A stretch of 36,204 nt of DNA from a virus, in IMG/VR virus record IMGVR_UViG_3300021399_000310, positions 1-36,204 of that record. One strand, written 5' to 3'. Position 1 is the first letter of the stretch. Each line of letters opens with the position of its first letter. The notes under the pieces are model-generated. The model was not told the origin of the DNA, did not search any database, and was given only the letters and a program-made list of their open reading frames with translations. Shown one piece after another: positions 19,156 to 27,692 of the stretch. The translations under genes were made by a program, and so were the position numbers.

Positions 19156-19647
19156 ATGAAGAAAAAAGGCGGACGTCCGGGCATGTATGTCGATTGGCTG
19201 ACGGATGAACGCCTGCGGGTCATCCGGATGTGGAAAAGAGCCGGGCTCACGGATAAGGAGATCGCCGGCAAGATTGGAGTCAGGACACAAACCATTTCAG
19301 AATGGAAGGGAAAGTTTCCGCAATTTGCGGATGCTTTTAAAAGCGGAAAAGAAGAAGCGGACGCGTCAGCGGTTGAGGCGCTCTTTTCACTGTTTGAAAA
19401 ACGGACATTGACGGAGACACGGGTCGAAGAATGGACGGACGCGAACGGGCAGAAGCGGCAGCATGTGACCAGAGTTACCAAAGAGATCGCACCGTCAGCG
19501 GGCGCGATAATCTTCTATCTGAAAGCCCAGATGGGGTGGCGAGATAATACAGAAGTCACAGACACCTCGGCGATCGACAGGCTGGACAAGCTGCTGAAAG
19601 CGCAGCAGGAACAGGCAGAGGCGGAAGATGACGACGACGCGGATTGA
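19156..19647 (+). CDS. terS: Terminase small subunit
   Basis: GAGGTGA RBS. GGRPG..., the HTH GLTDKEIAGKIGVRTQTISEW, then FYLKAQMGWRD. Confidence 0.8.
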   Translation: MKKKGGRPGMYVDWLTDERLRVIRMWKRAGLTDKEIAGKIGVRTQTISEWKGKFPQFADAFKSGKEEADASAVEALFSLFEKRTLTETRVEEWTDANGQKRQHVTRVTKEIAPSAGAIIFYLKAQMGWRDNTEVTDTSAIDRLDKLLKAQQEQAEAEDDDDAD

Positions 19648-20899
19648 ATTCTCAAAAAAGCAGCGGCAGTTTTTTCGGAAAGCGACCCATCGTTTCAACT
19701 TCAAGGTAGGAGCGGTCAGATCCGGGAAATCATACGGCGACATTGCCCACGTGATCCTGTTCAGGATACGCGAAAGAGCCGGTCTGAGCGGGCTGAATGT
19801 CATCCTTGGGGTGTCGAAGGCAACGATCGAAAGAAACGTCCTGCAGCCGATGCGGGAGATATACGGGCGCGAGCTGATCGGGATGATCAACAACCGGAAC
19901 ATTGCGATCATTGCCGGCGAAGAGGTGCATTGCCTCGGCGCGGAGAAAGTAAGCCAGGTCGCGAAGATTCAGGGGGCGTCGATCAAGTACCTGTACGGTG
20001 ACGAGATCGCGAAATGGAACCGCGAGGTATTCGAGATGCTTCCGTCACGACTCGACAAAGACTACTCAGTCATGGACGGATCCTGCAACCCGGAACACCC
20101 CCGGCATTGGCTGAAGCAATTCATAGACCGGGAGGACATCGACTCATATGTGCAGCACTATGTCATCTTCGACAATCCATTCCTTCCCCGGGCATTCATT
20201 GACAACCTATGCAAGGAATACGAGGGGACGGTCTATTACCAGCGGTTCATCCTCGGAGAATGGGCGCTGGCTGAGGGGCTTATTTACCCATCGTTTCAGG
20301 ACGCTCTTATAGACGACGTGAGCGCGATCGAGGGGGAGCCGATGGAATATTCGCTGTCGATCGACTACGGCACACAGAACGCATTTGCAGCGCTCCTGTG
20401 GGCGAGATATGGAAAACAGTGGGTCATTATTGACGAATATTATTATTCCGGAAGAGACACCGGCACACAGAAGACGGATGAAGAATACGCAAACGATCTC
20501 GACAATTTTATCAGACCGATCATGAAGAAGCGAGAGGAAGAAATAGAGAAACATCAGGCGCGGTACTTACGGAAGATGAGGACGATCATCGATCCGTCTG
20601 CCGCGTCTTTTATTGAAGCCTTGGAACGGAGGAAATGGTACTCCGTCACCAAAGCTGACAACGCAGTCCTTGACGGCATAAGGGAAACGAACACATGCAT
20701 GAAAAACGGGTATATAAAAATCGCGAGGTCATGCAAGAACCTGATTGCTGAATTGAATGGCTATGTGTGGGATGACAAAGCGGAAGATGACAGACCAGTG
20801 AAAGTCAACGATCATGCAGCAGATGCGTGCAGATATTTTGTTAAAACCATGAATCTCGTAAAGCCGAAAAAGGATTACATCTCACCATTTAGGAGGTAA
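19628..20899 (+). CDS. terL: Terminase large subunit (PBSX / Terminase_3-like, headful type)
   Basis: Walker A GAVRSGKS, Walker B YLYGDE, and nuclease motifs SIDYG and DHAADACRY. Confidence 0.95.
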   Translation: MTTTRIEFSKKQRQFFRKATHRFNFKVGAVRSGKSYGDIAHVILFRIRERAGLSGLNVILGVSKATIERNVLQPMREIYGRELIGMINNRNIAIIAGEEVHCLGAEKVSQVAKIQGASIKYLYGDEIAKWNREVFEMLPSRLDKDYSVMDGSCNPEHPRHWLKQFIDREDIDSYVQHYVIFDNPFLPRAFIDNLCKEYEGTVYYQRFILGEWALAEGLIYPSFQDALIDDVSAIEGEPMEYSLSIDYGTQNAFAALLWARYGKQWVIIDEYYYSGRDTGTQKTDEEYANDLDNFIRPIMKKREEEIEKHQARYLRKMRTIIDPSAASFIEALERRKWYSVTKADNAVLDGIRETNTCMKNGYIKIARSCKNLIAELNGYVWDDKAEDDRPVKVNDHAADACRYFVKTMNLVKPKKDYISPFRR

Positions 20900-20900
20900 T

Positions 20901-22250
20901 ATGCTAACATTTCAGGACTTTCAGGAAAACAGGGACGTGATCGCATTCATCGAGAGAGCACTCGCAGAACATGCGGCAGACCCCCGGGTAAGAATGGCGC
21001 AGATTGCGGACGAATACGACCGCCAAAAGAACACGACGGTCATGAACTATTCGAAAATGCTGTACGAGATGGACGGGCAGGCGCTGGAAGACAGAACGGC
21101 ATCCACGAACCGGATCGCTTCGAACTTTTTCCACCGGCTGAACACCCAGCGAAACACCTATCTGCTCGGAAACGGCGTTTTTTTTCAGGACAAAAAGACG
21201 AAGGAACTGCTGGGCGACTCATTCGACACGGTCATGAAACGGATCGGATACAACGCCCTGAAGCACGGGGTATCGTACGGAATCTGGAACAATGACCGGC
21301 TGTATAATTTCACGATTCACGAATTTATGGGCTTCCCGGACGAGAACACAAGCGCGATCCGGGCAGGCATCCGGTTTTGGCGGCTTGCACCGAATAAGCC
21401 CAGGTGCGTGACACTGTACGAGGAAGACGGGTACACCGAATTCGCGGACAACGGCGACAAACAGCTCGTACAGATTGCGGAGAAACGCGCATACCGTGAG
21501 CGGATCGCACACACAGAGCTCGGCGGTGACGAGATCATCGGGTACGACAACTACTCTGCGCTGCCGATCATCCCGATGTACGGATCTTATCTTCAGCAAT
21601 CAACCCTTGTAGGAATGCGGGCAAAGATCGACGCGTATGACCTGATCGCTTCAGGCTTCGCGAACGACCTCGATGATTGTGCGGAGATCTATTGGCTGCT
21701 GGGCAACGCCGGCGGCATGGATGACGCAGACATGGCGCGTTTCCGGGACAGGCTGAAGTTGCAGCACATCGCCAAAGTCGATCGAGACCAAACTGTCACG
21801 CCGTACACGCAGGAAATCCCGTACACAGCCCGGAAAGAGTTTCTCGACATCATCCGGGCAGGTATTTATGAAGACTTCGGCGGACTTGACGTTCACGCAG
21901 TGGCAGCAGGAGCGACCAACGATCATATCGAAGCGGCATACCAGCCGCTCGATGAAGAGGCGGATGACTTTGAATTTCAGTGCACAGACTTCATAAAGCA
22001 GGTTCTGGCGCTGATCGGAGTCGAGGACGAACCAACATACAAGCGGAACCGGATCAGCAACCAGAGCGAGACCGTAAGCATGGTCATGCAGGCGGCGACA
22101 TACCTTGACGCGGAAACGGTTCTGAAGAAGCTGCCGTTTGTCACGGTTGACGAGGTACAGGACATCCTCAACCGGAAGGACAAAGAGGACGTCGACCGTT
22201 TTGCCGGCATCCAGCAGCAGAGCGAGGAACCGGGTGATATGAATGGCTGA
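20901..22250 (+). CDS. Portal protein (SPP1 gp6-like)
   Basis: Size (449 aa), position after TerL, and an acidic C-terminus. Confidence 0.88.
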   Translation: MLTFQDFQENRDVIAFIERALAEHAADPRVRMAQIADEYDRQKNTTVMNYSKMLYEMDGQALEDRTASTNRIASNFFHRLNTQRNTYLLGNGVFFQDKKTKELLGDSFDTVMKRIGYNALKHGVSYGIWNNDRLYNFTIHEFMGFPDENTSAIRAGIRFWRLAPNKPRCVTLYEEDGYTEFADNGDKQLVQIAEKRAYRERIAHTELGGDEIIGYDNYSALPIIPMYGSYLQQSTLVGMRAKIDAYDLIASGFANDLDDCAEIYWLLGNAGGMDDADMARFRDRLKLQHIAKVDRDQTVTPYTQEIPYTARKEFLDIIRAGIYEDFGGLDVHAVAAGATNDHIEAAYQPLDEEADDFEFQCTDFIKQVLALIGVEDEPTYKRNRISNQSETVSMVMQAATYLDAETVLKKLPFVTVDEVQDILNRKDKEDVDRFAGIQQQSEEPGDMNG

Positions 22251-23253
22251 TGACCGCGGTCACGAACTGACCGACGAAATGATCGAAAAGCTGGAGAAGC
22301 GGATCGAGAAAGAGTATGCGCAGGCATACAAAGAGGTGTCCGAGAAGCTCGAAAAATACATGAAGCGCTTCGAAAAGAAGGACGATCAGAAACGCGCAGC
22401 CATGGAGGCGGGCGAGATTACAAAGGACGAGTACACGAAATGGCGGCACGGGCAGATCATGATGGGCAAGCGCTGGGAGGAGATGCGGGATACACTCGCC
22501 GCAGACCTCGTCACGGTTGACAGCAAGACGCGGTCGATCATCGGCGAGAGCCTTCCGGAAGCGTACGCACTGAACCATGATTATGCGACCTTCGATGTTG
22601 AGCGACAGAGCCTTATAAACACCTCGTACACGCTTTACGACCGGCAGACGGTGGAGAACCTTCTGCGGGATGATGAAACGCTTCTGCCCTATCCCCGGAC
22701 GGAGTCAAAAACGGCGGAGATGCTGCGGGAGCGGATGGATCTTCAGTGGAACCGGCAGAAAATCAGTTCGTCAGTGCTGCAGGGAGTCCTTCAGGGCGAG
22801 CCGATCAGCAAGATCGCAAAACGCCTCAAAACAGTTGTCGGCATGGATAAGGCAGCAGCCGTCCGGAACGCCCGGACGATGATGACGGCAGCCGAGAACA
22901 AGGGCAGAGACGACGCCTGCAACGCGCTGGAGGAAAAGGGCGTAGGTCTTGACCGTGTATGGCTTGCGACCCTAGATGACCGCACCAGAGCCTCGCACAG
23001 GTGGCTGCACGGCGAACGGAGAGACCCGAAGACGGGCAAATATCCGAACGGCTTAGCATACCCGGGTGACCCAATGGGAGCGCCTGCGGAGGTTTACAAC
23101 TGCCGGTGCCGGCAGAGAGCGATGGTCAAAGGCATCCCACACGATATTCCTAAGTATTCTCCCAAGATGGGGTCGATGACTTTCGAAGAATGGCGGGGAG
23201 AGAAGCAGAAAGAACTCGCGGAGGAAATCAGGGAGGACGATAATGCCGAATAA
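22243..23253 (+). CDS. Head morphogenesis protein (SPP1 gp7 / Mu F-like)
   Basis: Sequence LDDRTRASHRWLHGE...YPGDPMGAPAEVYNCRCR. Confidence 0.88.
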   Translation: MADDRGHELTDEMIEKLEKRIEKEYAQAYKEVSEKLEKYMKRFEKKDDQKRAAMEAGEITKDEYTKWRHGQIMMGKRWEEMRDTLAADLVTVDSKTRSIIGESLPEAYALNHDYATFDVERQSLINTSYTLYDRQTVENLLRDDETLLPYPRTESKTAEMLRERMDLQWNRQKISSSVLQGVLQGEPISKIAKRLKTVVGMDKAAAVRNARTMMTAAENKGRDDACNALEEKGVGLDRVWLATLDDRTRASHRWLHGERRDPKTGKYPNGLAYPGDPMGAPAEVYNCRCRQRAMVKGIPHDIPKYSPKMGSMTFEEWRGEKQKELAEEIREDDNAE

Positions 23254-23474
23254 AATGAAATTTTCGCTTTCTTCAAAACTGCCGGAAGTTCTTCAGGCAA
23301 CGGACGAAGCCATTACAACGGCTTTGGAAGCGATCGGAGAACAGGCTGAAGGGAATGTCGCGGACGAGATCACGCGCGTCGGAGCGGTTGATACAGGGCG
23401 TCTGAGGAATTCCATCGACAGCCGGGTCGTTGAAAAAACGGTATACGTCGGCACAAACGTCGAATACGCTCCGT
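23243..23474 (+). CDS. HK97 gp10-family head-tail protein, exon 1
   Basis: Sequence AVDTGRLRNSI...VGTNVEYAP is family-typical up to 23474. After that the track ORF runs into the aberrant tail LTNRRRSTVMCC. Confidence 0.8.
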
Positions 23475-23728
23475 TAACAAACAGGCGGAGAAGCACAGTG
23501 ATGTGCTGTTAGAAAATCGAGCAAAATCGGTGAAAGCTAAACTGGAAGGCAAGCAAACACCGAGGTAACCGGTAGACCACCGGCACCGTAGAGCGTAGGA
23601 GATGAGCGATATGGAAGCAATAATTCTCCCAAGAGTGCTCGACTCTCAGAAATGAGATGATGATGTACGCCGACCTCATGGGAAACCATGAGAAGCAGAG
23701 GATAAAAAGCCTTTGCGATAACAAAGTG
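23475..23728 (+). ncRNA. Group I self-splicing intron (IA-like, no ORF), 254 nt
   Basis: The last exon nucleotide U23474 forms a G-U pair in P1 (23469-74 / 23485-90). P2 is 23492-97 / 23502-07 with a GUGA loop. P3 is 23517-22 / 23637-42. J3/4 is AAAA. P4 is 23527-32 / 23558-63. P6 is 23564-72 / 23580-87. P7 is 23593-97 / 23666-70. P7.1 is 23598-602 / 23625-29. P8 is 23644-48 / 23653-57 with a GAAA loop. P9 is 23675-81 / 23686-92 with a GAAA loop. The terminal nucleotide is G23728. Confidence 0.8.
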
Positions 23729-23850
23729 ATGTCGAACTCGGCACCGTAAAAATGGCAGCGAGACCGTATCTCAGACCGGGCATGGAAAACAATCTCAGAG
23801 AATACCAGGACATATTGGTTGAAGTGCTAAAAAGCCAAATGAAACGATAA
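23729..23850 (+). CDS. HK97 gp10-family head-tail protein, exon 2
   Basis: Splicing gives ...NVEYAP-Y-VELGTVKMAARPYLRP..., restoring the family motif and the reading frame. The spliced product is 117 aa. Confidence 0.8.
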
Positions 23851-23853
23851 AGA

Positions 23854-23876
23854 CGTCGGATGGATCCGGCGTTTTT
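23854..23876 (+). terminator. Rho-independent terminator
   Basis: Stem CGTCGGA / TCCGGCG (one G-U pair), then TTTTT. Confidence 0.65.
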
Positions 23877-23948
23877 ATATGCCCAAAGAACAGGGCAAAA
23901 AAACGACATTTGTCGAAGAAATGACACCGACGAAGAACAGGAGGAAAA

Positions 23949-24542
23949 ATGGCGTTAACACGAAGCATGCTGAAAGGCATGAACCTCACCGACGAACAGG
24001 TGAGCGCGATCATCGAGGAACACACGAACACTATCGACGGACTGAAGGCAGACAGGGACAGATACAAAGCGGAAGCGGCGAAAGTTCCGGATCTGCAGAA
24101 GAAAATCGATGCATACGCTTCCGGCGATGATTGGCAGAAGAAGTACAACGACGAAAAAAAGGCGTTCGACGACTACAAGAAGGCAATCGCCGGCAAAGAA
24201 CAGCTGGCAAAGGTTCAGAGCGCATACAAAGCGCTGCTGAAGTCTTCGGGAGTAGACGAAAAGCGCATCGATTCTATCGTCAAGGTCACGGACTTCGCAG
24301 ACCTTAAACTCAACGAAAAGGGCGAGTTTGACAACGCCGAAGAACTGACCAAGAACATCCGATCCGAATGGTCTGGGTTCATCGTTTCACAGGGAACAAA
24401 AGGCGCAGACATTAAAACGCCGCCCGGAAACACAGGCGCAACGATGACCAGAGAGCAGATCATGAAGATCAAAGACGGAGCAGAGCGGAGAAAGGCAATC
24501 GCCGAGAACCCGTCCCTGTTCGGTTTAAGCAGCGCAGAATAA
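23949..24542 (+). CDS. Scaffolding protein (GP20/DUF4355-like)
   Basis: AGGAGG RBS. Helical and K/E/D-rich. Immediately upstream of the capsid gene. Confidence 0.82.
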   Translation: MALTRSMLKGMNLTDEQVSAIIEEHTNTIDGLKADRDRYKAEAAKVPDLQKKIDAYASGDDWQKKYNDEKKAFDDYKKAIAGKEQLAKVQSAYKALLKSSGVDEKRIDSIVKVTDFADLKLNEKGEFDNAEELTKNIRSEWSGFIVSQGTKGADIKTPPGNTGATMTREQIMKIKDGAERRKAIAENPSLFGLSSAE

Positions 24543-24560
24543 GCGCAGGAAAGGAAAATC

Positions 24561-25433
24561 ATGGCAGACGCAAAACTCATTAAAAAGGCAGACCTCGCGC
24601 GCGTTCGTGAGGTAGACTTCACGCTTCAGTTTACAGAATCCGTCAAGAAGCTGACGGAAGCGCTGGGTGTTACCCGCAAGATTCCGAAGCAGGCAGGCGC
24701 ACAGCTGAAGATTTACACAGCGACAGGCACACTTGAAAACGGCGCAGTCGCAGAAGGCGACGTCATTCCGCTGTCCAAATATTCCACAGTCGGAACACCG
24801 GTCGGCGAAATCACTCTGCTGAAGTGGCGGAAGGCAACATCCGCAGAGGCGATCATCGACCGCGGATATGATCAGGCAGTTGCACAGACAACCGACCGCA
24901 TGCTGAAGGACGTACAGAAGAACATCCGTAAGAATTTCTTCGACTTCCTCGCGGATCTTGAAAACACAACACCGGCAACAGGCGCAGGTCTGCAGGCAGC
25001 ACTTGCGCAGGGCTGGGGCAAGCTGCAGGTACTCTTTGAGGATGACGAGATTGAGAACGTATTCTTCATGAATCCGCAGGATGTTGCTGACTACCTCGGC
25101 ACAGCGCAGGTCACAGTGCAGACTGCTTTCGGCATGTCCTACATTGAGAACTTCCTCGGTCTGGGCACAGTTATCATGAACAGCTCTGTAACTGCCGGCA
25201 CATTCTTCGCAACAGCGAAGGACAACATCGTTCTGTACTATGTACCGGCAAACGGCGCAGATCTGGACGAAGTCTTCAATTTCACAGCGGATGAAACCGG
25301 TTATATCGGCATTCACGAGGAACCGGACTACTCCAACATGACAGCAGTCAACACCGTCGTGAACGGCATGAAGCTGCTGGTCGAACGTGCTGACGGCGTT
25401 GTCTCCGGCACGATCACAAAAGCGGGGGAATAA
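24561..25433 (+). CDS. Major capsid protein
   Basis: 290 aa, follows the scaffold gene, composition consistent with an HK97-fold siphovirus capsid protein. Confidence 0.88.
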   Translation: MADAKLIKKADLARVREVDFTLQFTESVKKLTEALGVTRKIPKQAGAQLKIYTATGTLENGAVAEGDVIPLSKYSTVGTPVGEITLLKWRKATSAEAIIDRGYDQAVAQTTDRMLKDVQKNIRKNFFDFLADLENTTPATGAGLQAALAQGWGKLQVLFEDDEIENVFFMNPQDVADYLGTAQVTVQTAFGMSYIENFLGLGTVIMNSSVTAGTFFATAKDNIVLYYVPANGADLDEVFNFTADETGYIGIHEEPDYSNMTAVNTVVNGMKLLVERADGVVSGTITKAGE

Positions 25434-25486
25434 CTGAGTTACTGAACAGTTCCGCACCCAATAGAGAAGAAGTCCCGCTGGAGTCA

Positions 25487-25591
25487 ATGACGAAGGCGGG
25501 GCTGCTTTCGTATGCAGAGGAAAACGGCATAACGGGTGTCAGTAGCTCGATGAAAAAGGCGGACATTTTGGCAGCAATAACGGAGGCGTAA
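25487..25591 (+). CDS. Small Rho-N/SAP (HeH)-like protein
   Basis: Sequence MTKAGLLSYAEENGITGVSSSMKKADILAAITEA. Hand-translated. The start is uncertain because the frame is open further upstream. Confidence 0.45.
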   Translation: MTKAGLLSYAEENGITGVSSSMKKADILAAITEA

Positions 25592-25594
25592 AAC

Positions 25595-26047
25595 ATGGAA
25601 AACTTAATGGACGAATTTTGCGCGACCGTTCACAACTACTTCGAAATTCGCGGCGGCGCGCATCGTGGCACTTTCACGATCGAGAACGGAGCGATCCGGG
25701 CTGACTTCCTGCGGGAGAACCAGTACTTTCGCGTGCTCGGATCTGTATTCAATGACGGGGTTCACAAATACCCGGCGAAAGACATGACGGACGAGACTTT
25801 CACAGGAACGGTTATCGAAATGGCAGTCCCGCCGTCTGTTTTGGCATTCCTCGCAGACGTTGAGGTATGGCTGGAAGAATACGGCGACGTTTCCGGCGCG
25901 AACTACTCACCGTACACATCGGAGAGTTTCAACAACTACAGCTATTCAAAGGGAACGGTATCCAGAGCGACCGGGACATCCGGAACCCCTATGACATGGA
26001 AAGACGCGTTTGCTGATCGTCTGACGCGCTGGAGGAAAATCGGATGA
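25595..26047 (+). CDS. Head-tail connector/adaptor protein
   Basis: Position, plus the motifs QYFRVLGSVFNDGV and SESFNNYSYSK seen in siphovirus connector genes (from memory). Confidence 0.6.
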   Translation: MENLMDEFCATVHNYFEIRGGAHRGTFTIENGAIRADFLRENQYFRVLGSVFNDGVHKYPAKDMTDETFTGTVIEMAVPPSVLAFLADVEVWLEEYGDVSGANYSPYTSESFNNYSYSKGTVSRATGTSGTPMTWKDAFADRLTRWRKIG

Positions 26048-26391
26048 GACTCTTCGAAAGCATGATGGAAACCTGCGTATTTATGGAGAAGCGCCGTGTC
26101 CCGGATGGGATGGGAGGAATCGTCCTGGAATGGGAAGAAGGGGCGGAATTCCCGGCGGCGATCGGCAAGGACTCGACCACAGCGGGCAGAGTTGCCGAGA
26201 AGGAAGGAGTCTCTGAGATTTACACCGTGACAGTCTATAAAGGGCTGCCGCTTTCGCCGTTTGACGTTTTCAAAAGGAAACGGGACGGGAAGGTGTTCAG
26301 AGTGACTTCGGACATCATCGACAACGAATCACCGCAGCCGGCGAGCTTCCATATCGGGCAGGTATCGGCGGAGGCATACACCCTTGAATGA
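26044..26391 (+). CDS. Head closure / head-tail adaptor protein
   Basis: Position and size. ATGA coupling. Confidence 0.6.
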   Translation: MRLFESMMETCVFMEKRRVPDGMGGIVLEWEEGAEFPAAIGKDSTTAGRVAEKEGVSEIYTVTVYKGLPLSPFDVFKRKRDGKVFRVTSDIIDNESPQPASFHIGQVSAEAYTLE

Positions 26392-26755
26392 TCGCATGAC
26401 GATCATCGCGGAGGCGCTGTACAACTTCTGGTCATCGTTCGGGCTGCCTGCGTTCGTCGAAAACGCTGTCCCGGATGATCAGGAACTTCCGTACATAACC
26501 TACCGGCTGGCGTTTCCTGAATGGCGGTCGCAAATGTCGATCTACGGGACGGTATGGGTCAGAAGCACTTCATACGCGCCGCTGGCAAACATCGTGAACA
26601 CGATCGACATGAAACTCGGGGAAGGGCTGCAACTCGAAACCGAGCGCGGGGTGATCTTCCTGTACAAGGACATCAACTTCGCGCAAATTCAGCCGCAGGA
26701 CGATCTGTCCGTAAAGGCGGCATATCTCAGCCTCATCTTAGAGGCGGACGTATAA
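26384..26755 (+). CDS. Tail completion/terminator-like protein
   Basis: Position. Probable TTG start, 10 nt after a GGAGG. Confidence 0.55.
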   Translation: MNDRMTIIAEALYNFWSSFGLPAFVENAVPDDQELPYITYRLAFPEWRSQMSIYGTVWVRSTSYAPLANIVNTIDMKLGEGLQLETERGVIFLYKDINFAQIQPQDDLSVKAAYLSLILEADV

Positions 26756-26765
26756 GGAGGAAACA

Positions 26766-27329
26766 ATGGGAAGAAAATACACACAGATCCCGGCGGATAC
26801 GTTTGAAAATCTTCAGCTGAACGCCGGTATCATCGTTGATGAATTCACCCCGGCGACAGGCGTGATCGGCAATCAGCTGGGCGCGACATCTGGCGGTCTG
26901 AATTTCACCCACACCCACGAATTCGTAGATCTGGGCGAAGATATTGACAACTGCCCGAAAAATACGAAAGAGCTGAAGCAGATCAGTTCAACAGAGTCCA
27001 AGCTGAGCGGCACGATGCTTACCATGAATGCCGCAACGGCTCAGCGGCTCATGATCGCCGACATCGACTCGTCAGATACGACAAAGATCGTCCCGAAGAA
27101 CGTTCTGGCGGATGCAGACTTTGACGACATCTGGTGGGTGGGTGACTACGGCGCAAACGGCAGCATCGCGATCCATATGAAGAACGCGCTGTCTACTGCC
27201 GGCTTTGCGATTCAGTCAACAGACAAGGGCAAAGGTCAGTTTGCCTTCGAATTCACCGCGCATTACAGCATCGCAGAACCGGACGAGGTTCCGGTCGAGG
27301 TATTCATCTCACAGGGAGCGAACTCGTAA
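26766..27329 (+). CDS. Major tail protein
   Basis: AAGGAGG RBS. 187 aa, immediately upstream of the chaperone pair. Confidence 0.8.
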   Translation: MGRKYTQIPADTFENLQLNAGIIVDEFTPATGVIGNQLGATSGGLNFTHTHEFVDLGEDIDNCPKNTKELKQISSTESKLSGTMLTMNAATAQRLMIADIDSSDTTKIVPKNVLADADFDDIWWVGDYGANGSIAIHMKNALSTAGFAIQSTDKGKGQFAFEFTAHYSIAEPDEVPVEVFISQGANS

Positions 27330-27332
27330 AAG

Positions 27333-27692
27333 ATGAAAAGATTGTCGGATTTTAAAAACGAGGAGGCAATTGACCTCCTCGCCGACATTCTGGAGCCGGC
27401 GGCGGAGATCGTCACAGACCAGAATGTCGTTGCAGAATTCAGAAACGGAAACAAAATCCGGGCATGCGCTCAGATGATCAAAGAGCACAAAACAGCAGTC
27501 GTCCGGATTCTGGCAGCAATGGACGGAAAAGAACCGGAGAACTATGAATTCGGTTTTTTCACACTTCCCAGCCGGGTTCTTGAAGTCATCAACGACGAAG
27601 AACTGCAGGCTTTTTTTACCTCGCGGCAGATCGAGAATTTAGACAGCAATTTTGGATCTGCTCAGGAGACTACAGAGGCAGCAGAAGAATAA
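27333..27692 (+). CDS. Tail assembly chaperone (G-like)
   Basis: Acidic C-terminus. Position between the major tail protein and the tape measure. Confidence 0.75.
   Translation: MKRLSDFKNEEAIDLLADILEPAAEIVTDQNVVAEFRNGNKIRACAQMIKEHKTAVVRILAAMDGKEPENYEFGFFTLPSRVLEVINDEELQAFFTSRQIENLDSNFGSAQETTEAAEE

Follow-up and report, generated by a model that had tools for sequence, protein, structure and literature searches.

The classical IA2 introns of phages (td, nrdB and sunY of T4, orf142 of Twort) combine an extra P7-P3' pairing with peripheral P9.x hairpins and homing endonucleases. Group I introns in the structural genes of phages, small ones lacking an open reading frame (ORF) included, are already documented (PMC3706429, PMC11878797). 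They occur in capsid and minor-tail genes of Cluster J mycobacteriophages, and the ORF-less 265-bp intron in the minor tail gene of BAKA and Optimus was shown by reverse transcription polymerase chain reaction to be spliced (PMC3706429). According to the citation of Foley et al. (2000) in PMC5601072, the group IA intron of the Streptococcus thermophilus lysin gene exists in full-length and in shortened, ORF-less forms and is found sporadically among close relatives; the reference lists of the papers cited here also name introns in the capsid gene of Tuc2009, the terminase gene of LL-H and lysin genes of S. thermophilus. A survey of the Bastillevirinae describes phage introns as heterogeneous, with present subgroup models covering them poorly (PMC11878797). 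We report here on a 254-nt insert, at positions 23475..23728 on the plus strand of IMG/VR virus record IMGVR_UViG_3300021399_000310 (36,204 nt, analysed whole and hereafter called the window), which splits a late-operon gene of the HK97-gp10 type and is very probably a functional group I intron, compact, ORF-less and IA-like. We read it as a group I intron because the insertion is exact, the RNA has a group I core, its helices show compensatory evolution and occupancy of the site varies.

Like the BAKA/Optimus intron, that of the window is small, lies without an endonuclease gene in a virion structural gene, follows an exon ending in U, itself ends in G, and is defined against intron-less sister phages; in both cases a related copy elsewhere carries a homing endonuclease (in another gene for the mycobacteriophages). 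The two differ in that the hosts of BAKA and Optimus belong to the Actinobacteria and in that splicing was shown there and is predicted here, the likeness being one of description. By the Michel-Westhof definitions, the window intron resembles the classical IA2 introns in its group I core, its extra P7-P3' pairing and its P9.x hairpins, but it has one extended P7.1 where IA2 introns have two hairpins (P7.1 and P7.2) between P7 and P3'. It shares with the S. thermophilus lysin intron the existence of several length forms and a sporadic distribution, but is found in a different gene; when it was compared by blastn with S. thermophilus phages, the terminase region was matched and the lysin region was not. 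No report of an intron in a gp10 or tail-completion gene was found; the host gene is new, the kind of element is not. An earlier, sequence-only reading of the window had stressed rarity, which was overstated: structural-gene group I introns are documented (PMC3706429, PMC11878797) and the clade to which this one is assigned is large.

An exact insertion in the gp10-like gene

The insert is delimited by two intron-less relatives. Both the contig that encodes the closest relative of the spliced protein (L001) and a 9.7-kb Logan contig of the same gene order (L251, 91-97% identical to the window over about 8 kb) align to the window with a single 254-nt gap, 23475-23728. The boundaries of this gap (CCGT^TAAC...AGTG^ATGT, with carets at the junctions) are non-slidable; therefore the 5' exon ends with U23474 and the insert with G23728. 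The intron-less site reads GAATAYGCNCCGT^ATGTNGAA. L001 derives from JGI sample 3300037400 and, if that sample is RNA, would be a sister-phage transcript after splicing. The only ORF in 23475-23728 is a 30-aa frame attributable to chance. The start of the intron, UAACAAAC (window 23475-23482), and its end, AUAACAAAGUG (23718-23728), display a 7-nt direct similarity, which is probably due to chance, judging from the sequences of other family members, where the 5' copy is absent.

Exon 1 (23243..23474, plus strand) consists of codons 1-77 of an HK97-gp10-like (tail completion / Neck1) gene plus U23474, the first base of Tyr78. Exon 2 (23729..23850, plus strand) completes Tyr78 with its last two bases and continues with VELGTVKMAARPYLRPGMENNLREYQDILVEVLKSQMKR up to the stop codon. 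Without splicing, the frame at 23243..23512 (plus strand) encodes 89 aa with ...VGTNVEYAPLTNRRRSTVMCC as C-terminal end; the HK97-gp10 pattern holds up to ...VGTNVEYAP and is followed by LTNRRRSTVMCC and the stop. Joining 23243-23474 to 23729-23850 gives 354 nt, i.e. 117 aa (...NVEYAP-YVELGTVKMAARPYLRP...), in a product that contains ...NVEYAPYVELGTVKMAARPYLRPG... and whose junction-spanning peptide is ...NVEYAPYLENGTSR..., also read as ...EYAPYVELGT.... The predicted ligated RNA is ...GCUCCGU joined to AUGUCGAAC. The sequence-only reading had proposed that a 254-nt ORF-less group I intron splits a gp10-family gene at these very junctions, that its removal restores a 117-aa frame and that ORF 23243..23512 is a truncated artefact. 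All of this was borne out, by the gap against L001 and L251, the helices and their covariation for the first point, by the translation of the joined exons and their Pfam score for the second; as to the third, public assemblies of the same sequence call that ORF and leave exon 2 uncalled.

Pfam family PF04883 scores the spliced product at 35.2 bits (cut-off 21.4) over profile positions 5-78 of 78, versus 27.7 bits for the truncated 89-aa ORF, and PHROG phrog_5 ('tail completion or Neck1') matches it over residues 1-117 (E 3.4e-23). Thousands of relatives without an interruption were found among 5.8 billion proteins, with P0001 (117 aa, 97% identical) at the top; alignment to uninterrupted homologues (L001, L251) establishes the two halves as one gene, as had been anticipated. 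With a profile of 38 relatives, PDB entry 9mu2_P ('HK97 gp10 family phage protein') was matched across the junction (E 2.9e-4); the profile was needed, since the spliced protein as a single sequence found nothing meaningful in the PDB. Residues N72-T83, flanking the junction, are invariant or nearly so and constitute the most conserved stretch of the protein family, with the insertion point inside its most conserved motif, NVEYAP^YVELGT. Both exons together differ from L001 by 14 synonymous and 3 non-synonymous codons; selection therefore acts on both at the protein level and in a single frame. Among genomes, the best relatives of the spliced protein reach only 53% identity, in rumen and gut metagenome-assembled genomes. 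No close GenBank phage was found for the window region, and the nearest relatives stem from gut and rumen assemblies as well as from phages of Lachnospiraceae.

Architecture and covariation of the intron RNA

The minimum free energy fold recovers most of the named helices (z-score -5.2; 0 of 200 shuffles equally stable). In a MAFFT alignment (A3) of the window intron with 24 full-length ORF-less homologues (25 sequences), 83.9% of the cells are paired, versus 67% for shuffled sequences and 31-47% with slid partners. Double-sided changes are found at 41 of the 55 pairs, none of 500 shuffles was as good, and P3, P7, P7.1 and P9.1 are each 100% paired; the variable-length helices P6a, P8 and P5 are poorly aligned by MAFFT. 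A covariance model of the 3' domain (R1) was derived from the introns of 20 other phages, with the window and its nearest relative excluded. It gives one match in the 36-kb window, 23588-23728 (118.4 bits, E~1e-25), ending at G23728, and finds 113 copies in 100 sources, the phage 858 copy at 82.7 bits. In the R1 alignment of 96 distinct rows, which leans towards the structure it was fitted to, 97.6% of the cells are paired and double changes occur at 28 of 30 pairs.

All elements are on the plus strand. P1 pairs exon CUCCGU (23469-74) with the internal guide GCGGAG (23485-90) over 6 bp, as read from the sequence and the fold; the U23474·G23485 wobble closes it and marks the 5' splice site. The guide and the junction are identical in two relatives, L187 and L194, and a 4-bp version exists in Clostridium perfringens phage phiCP39-O. 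The P2 hairpin (GCACA-GUGA-UGUGC, 23493..23506) appears in the fold with a GNRA loop, and its closing pair goes from G-C to A-U in L187. P3 (UCGAGC, 23517-22, with GCUCGA, 23637-42) is 100% paired in the 25-sequence alignment and has double changes at 6/6 pairs. An A-rich J3/4 (AAAA, 23523-26) directly precedes P4 (23527-32 with 23558-63), which is 85% paired and changes from G-C to A-U in L187. Then come J4/5 (AAA), a short P5 (23536-38 with 23552-54, 67% paired) and loop L5, which is the position of an HNH ORF in sister introns (L194 and phiCP39-O, the latter listed as L004). P6 (GGU/ACC, 93% paired with covariation) and P6a (CCGGU/ACCGG, of varying length) occupy 23564..23587.

P7 is formed by G23591, the bulged A23592 and GCGUA (23591..23597) with UACGCC (23666-23671), and is 100% paired. 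P7.1, GGAGA/UCUCC around a 22-nt interior (23598..23629), sits between the 5' strand of P7 and P3'; it is 99-100% paired and 5/5 of its pairs covary, in keeping with the IA-type extra helix claimed earlier. Inside it, P7.1a (23606/07 with 23617/18) has only 2 bp, 41% paired on the MAFFT alignment. The P8 hairpin (UCUCA-GAAA-UGAGA, 23644..23657) is seen in the fold and is 90% paired in the model-based alignment; J8/7 (UGAUGAUG, 23658-65) follows it, directly upstream of the P7 3' strand. The P9 hairpin (CUCAUGG-GAAA-CCAUGAG, 23675..23692) is 99-100% paired and the P9.1 hairpin (GCAGAGG-AUAAAAAG-CCUUUGC, 23695..23716) 99.9%, with 7/7 pairs covarying in each. The RNA ends with a 12-nt 3' tail (23717-28) made of the conserved GAUAACAAAGU and the terminal G23728, at which the R1 alignment also stops. 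The sequence-only reading had listed a complete nested helix set: every helix it named is present, including the 6-bp P1 with its U23474·G pair, and the last intron base is G23728, as fixed by the intron-less alleles, but P3 and P7 form a pseudoknot, so that the set is not nested, and a short P5 exists as well.

Two pairs of P7 behave differently. The first, G23591-C23671, is G-C in 45 and A-U in 46 of 96 sequences, versus the second, G23593-C23670, located after the bulged A23592, which is G-C in 88/93 and never covaries. The latter is a candidate guanosine-binding pair: its layout is canonical, and its function is predicted from the structural model.

The closest intron, that of L187, is a 254-nt ORF-less element at the identical CCGT^AT, 92.5% identical to that of the window. 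Their 19 differences include 10 that combine into five fully compensated base pairs (one each in P2 and P4, three in P7.1), a single change of G·U to G-C in P9.1 and eight at unpaired positions; none breaks a helix.

The covariance check suggested by the sequence-only reading did return a match to Rfam RF00028, the full model (1-253) aligning to 23465-23692, but at 23.6 bits (E=6.8e-4 in a 551-nt search) the window copy is under the Rfam threshold, which a clade member, the terminase intron of phage 858, passes (51.9 bits on a short stretch). The intron of phage TPWB06 (L002), also scored on a short stretch, reached 39.9 bits. An Rfam E-value scan over 10 loci gave nothing; larger Rfam searches lose clade members to the speed filters. 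The short-stretch scores show that the null scans are an effect of filters and threshold, not of absence. The clade connects to RF00028, although the window copy is sub-threshold.

Occupancy of the site and spread of the intron family

The IMG/VR contig L194 carries the same ribozyme at CCGT^AT, within a 941-nt intron whose loop L5 contains a 219-aa HNH ORF (phrog_374, E 1e-76). In phiCP39-O, the order is minor head gene, gp10-like exon 1 (...SNVEYAP), a 930-nt intron at the identical CCGT^AT, and exon 2, which gives YLENGTSRQPARP.... Its loop L5 also contains an HNH ORF, homologous to that of L194 (phrog_374, E 1.6e-80). The HNH ORFs of these two introns have 216-219 aa; Pfam gave no match for that of phiCP39-O, and the HNH identity came from PHROGs. 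In the phiCP39-O record (EU588980.1, region 490-1760), the intron with its HNH ORF, at 716-1645, is unannotated: exon 1 is a 'hypothetical protein', the HNH ORF is 'similar to Staphylococcus phage protein' and exon 2 is uncalled. The same blastn match is present in phiCP26F, phiCP9O and vB_CpeP_PMQ04. No paper mentioning an intron in phiCP39-O was found.

L001, L251 and L166 lack an intron at this site, whereas the window, L187, L194, phiCP39-O and six public contigs have one. One and the same site is thus known without an intron, with an ORF-less one and with one that carries an endonuclease. When IMG/VR relatives of the protein were scanned with the intron profile, 2 of 80 viral loci were found to carry the intron, as did 0 of 33 genome loci encoding gp10 relatives. 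The intron-bearing allele is present in at least four independent assemblies. In the whole of 19600-27400, no segment other than the intron has matches in more than 100 otherwise unrelated GenBank phages. No HNH homologue was found in the whole window.

Splice sites were asserted where protein homology fixes them, i.e. in the window, L187, L194, phiCP39-O and Oenococcus phage Krappator149. Calling them from P1 pairing and open frames was tried on 27 homologues, but the criteria let too much through and these calls were left unused. In Krappator149 (L009, PQ156466.1, 1158-1996), a family intron lies in a gp10-like gene 2 nt upstream of the equivalent window site (GCC CT^A TAT), and the record places four short minus-strand ORFs across it. 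On the minus strand of IMGVR_UViG_3300045988_010777 (L088, about 1230-2700), a gp10-like gene (...GSNLAYSV / VELGTGIFAEKG...) has an intron with a homologous HNH ORF. No clean placement of its splice junction was obtained, P1 being only about 3 bp and the reading frame ambiguous.

A blastn search of GenBank phages with the 254-nt intron matched 139 records. The host genes are tape-measure genes (Arcanobacterium TPWB06, Caldibacillus CBP1, Staphylococcus Sextaecvirus), terminase genes (Staphylococcus S-CoN phages, Sextaecvirus, S. thermophilus phages including 858, orf4/orf5) and a DNA polymerase gene (Alicyclobacillus MMB025). They are annotated as split pieces, and the intron is annotated in none of the matched records. 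The GenBank members are 70-85% identical to the window intron over P6 to the 3' end and share its helices and its 3' module, GGAUAAAAAGCC...GAUAACA. phiCP39-O has the gene, the gene order and the splice site in common with the window, whereas the other members are in different host genes; an HNH ORF is present in the phiCP39-O, S-CoN_Ph1 and MMB025 copies but not in the window copy. At least 120 IMG/VR stretches contain the 3' motif AGGATAAAAAGCCTNNNNGATAACA. On these sequence similarities, the window intron is assigned to a large clade that is widespread among phages of Bacillota. The experimentally spliced terminase intron of Lactobacillus phage LL-H was considered as a relative and rejected (no nhmmer match, 3' motif absent). 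Two or three clustered family copies are seen in L033, L018, L014, L066, L072, L037, L040, L096, L098, L047, L092 and L007, with three copies within 1.6 kb in L033, which suggests multi-intron genes or neighbouring invaded genes.

The P9.1 loop AUAAAAAG and the tail GAUAACA (window 23700-23723) are almost invariant, also in the members found by blastn, and no pairing partner was found for them. The J2/3 segment UGUUA was tried as a partner of the GAUAACA tail and rejected, since the pairing seen in the window is missing from L187 and L003. It is conceivable, though we give it a rather low probability, that these compact Bacillota-phage introns form a clade not described as such, marked by the near-invariant 3' module, largely missed by Rfam, and which may merit a subgroup or model of its own. 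If this is true, the module would mark a tertiary contact or recognition element absent from classical IA2 phage introns.

Splicing, rival readings and genomic setting

On the intron reading, the late transcript would fold and an exogenous guanosine would dock at G23593-C23670 of P7 and attack after U23474, held in P1 by the guide GCGGAG through the U·G wobble. The freed 3'-OH of U23474 would then attack after the terminal G23728, and the exons would be ligated to CCG-UAU-GUC, from which the 117-aa tail-completion protein would be translated; unspliced RNA would yield only the 89-aa product, terminated at UAG 23510-12. The intron sits in the most conserved motif of its gene, the typical target of homing elements. 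It would have spread by homing, with the HNH endonuclease of its sister copies as the driver; the window copy may have lost the HNH ORF or never had one, and would now be movable only with an endonuclease in trans.

Several points weigh against this reading. P5 is weak (3 bp, the third pair without support), P10 has only about 3 bp with A·G at +1, and ribosomes could run through P1 and P2, the in-frame stop being 36 nt inside the intron. The RF00028 score of 23.6 bits is below the gathering cut-off of 50, a default Rfam scan of the whole window lists nothing, and the 96-row alignment has the bias mentioned above. No experimentally tested member of this clade was found, and splicing of the window intron is inferred, not observed in RNA. 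The main residual doubt is whether the window copy still splices, and does so unaided.

The second half of this doubt corresponds to an intron that splices in vivo without being autocatalytic, with the help of a protein cofactor, be it a host factor or an endonuclease/maturase provided in trans by a co-infecting relative. The weakness of P5 and P10, the compactness of an intron with few peripheral stabilising domains and the protein encoded in loop L5 of the sister copies would all be in keeping with it. HNH intron endonucleases, however, are not known as maturases. Self-splicing is common among small phage and bacterial group I introns (205-265 nt) without an ORF, and GNRA-type tetraloops (GAAA in L9, GUGA in L2) are available in the window intron for tertiary docking. 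The ORF-less 265-nt tail-gene intron of BAKA does splice (PMC3706429). We consider such a dependence unlikely.

The first half, a group I intron by descent that no longer splices, would make the gp10-like gene a pseudogene in a defective prophage or a dead-end genome. The window has neither an endonuclease ORF nor an HNH homologue, and its Rfam score is sub-threshold. Decay, however, is not what the locus looks like: the core helices are all intact, the comparison with L187 reveals five compensatory double substitutions and no helix-breaking change, and exon 2 is in frame, the codon differences from L001 being 14 synonymous versus 3 non-synonymous. The neighbouring structural genes are all intact ORFs and the allele recurs in at least four independent assemblies. 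We regard a loss of splicing as very unlikely.

That 23475-23728 is no intron at all, but a non-splicing insertion (a miniature transposon or a recombination scar), two independent small genes or a translational bypass element, can be given next to no credence: TAACAAA is present at both ends (23475-81, 23719-25) and an ATG at 23752 opens a 32-aa ORF, but neither terminal inverted repeats nor a target duplication are present, other family members lack TAACAAA at the 5' end, the 32-aa ORF would be without the invariant YVELGT motif, 254 nt is far above the known bypass gap (50 nt in T4 gene 60), and the reading is already contradicted by covariation, the P3/P7 pseudoknot fold covarying in ~100 sequences within terminase, tape-measure, DNA polymerase and gp10 genes.

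In the window, the terminase large subunit (19628-20899), portal (20901-22250) and Mu-F-like minor head protein (22243-23253) genes precede the gp10-like gene (23243-23850), which overlaps the last of them by 11 nt. The scaffold (PF06810, 23949-24542), major head protein (24561-25433) and major tail protein (26766-27329) genes follow; only three small ORFs (25595-26755) separate the last two of these. The gp10-like gene is unusually early, with the Mu-F-like minor head gene before it and the scaffold gene after it, as the sequence-only reading had remarked. This position is conserved in L187, L194, L251 and phiCP39-O and is therefore a lineage trait, not a rearrangement. The gene upstream of gp10 (window 22243-23253) codes for a 336-aa Mu-F protein in the window and a 540-aa one in L251 (2374-3996), and upstream of gp10 L001 has unrelated sequence (1-130); these differences therefore point to a mosaic boundary exactly where the gp10-like gene begins. 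The stop codon of this gene is immediately followed, ahead of the scaffold gene, by a 14-bp terminator-like hairpin, AUAAAGACGUCGGA-UGGA-UCCGGCGUUUUUAU (23847-23878, plus strand; dG -17.9 kcal/mol, z -4.2), with an A-tract on one side and a U-tract on the other, as in intrinsic terminators that act in both directions. L001 and L251 retain it, with two changes in the loop; at the same place L187 has a hairpin whose sequence is different. A consensus terminator scan did not list it.

The window sequence is 100% identical to an ENA metagenome scaffold (ERZ28612961 scaffold_2116, sample label SAMN02144230) and to contig 5136 of Logan SRR873602, and its copies in ENA, NCBI and Logan have the 89-aa ORF and an uncalled exon 2. 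Likewise, the records of phiCP39-O, Krappator149, TPWB06, CBP1, S-CoN_Ph1 and phage 858 have split or spurious coding sequences and no intron feature. The gp10-like gene is mis-called in every public copy; default Rfam scanning is no rescue, and a clade-specific covariance model would be. To conclude, this is a real but fairly ordinary example of a known mobile element, of value mainly for annotation, and it leaves the understanding of how such introns work unchanged. With it, group I introns are seen to have invaded one more structural gene of phages, that for tail completion. The locus offers a natural series (empty, ORF-less and HNH-bearing) at one nucleotide position in nearly identical phages, which suits the study of how homing endonuclease genes are gained and lost.

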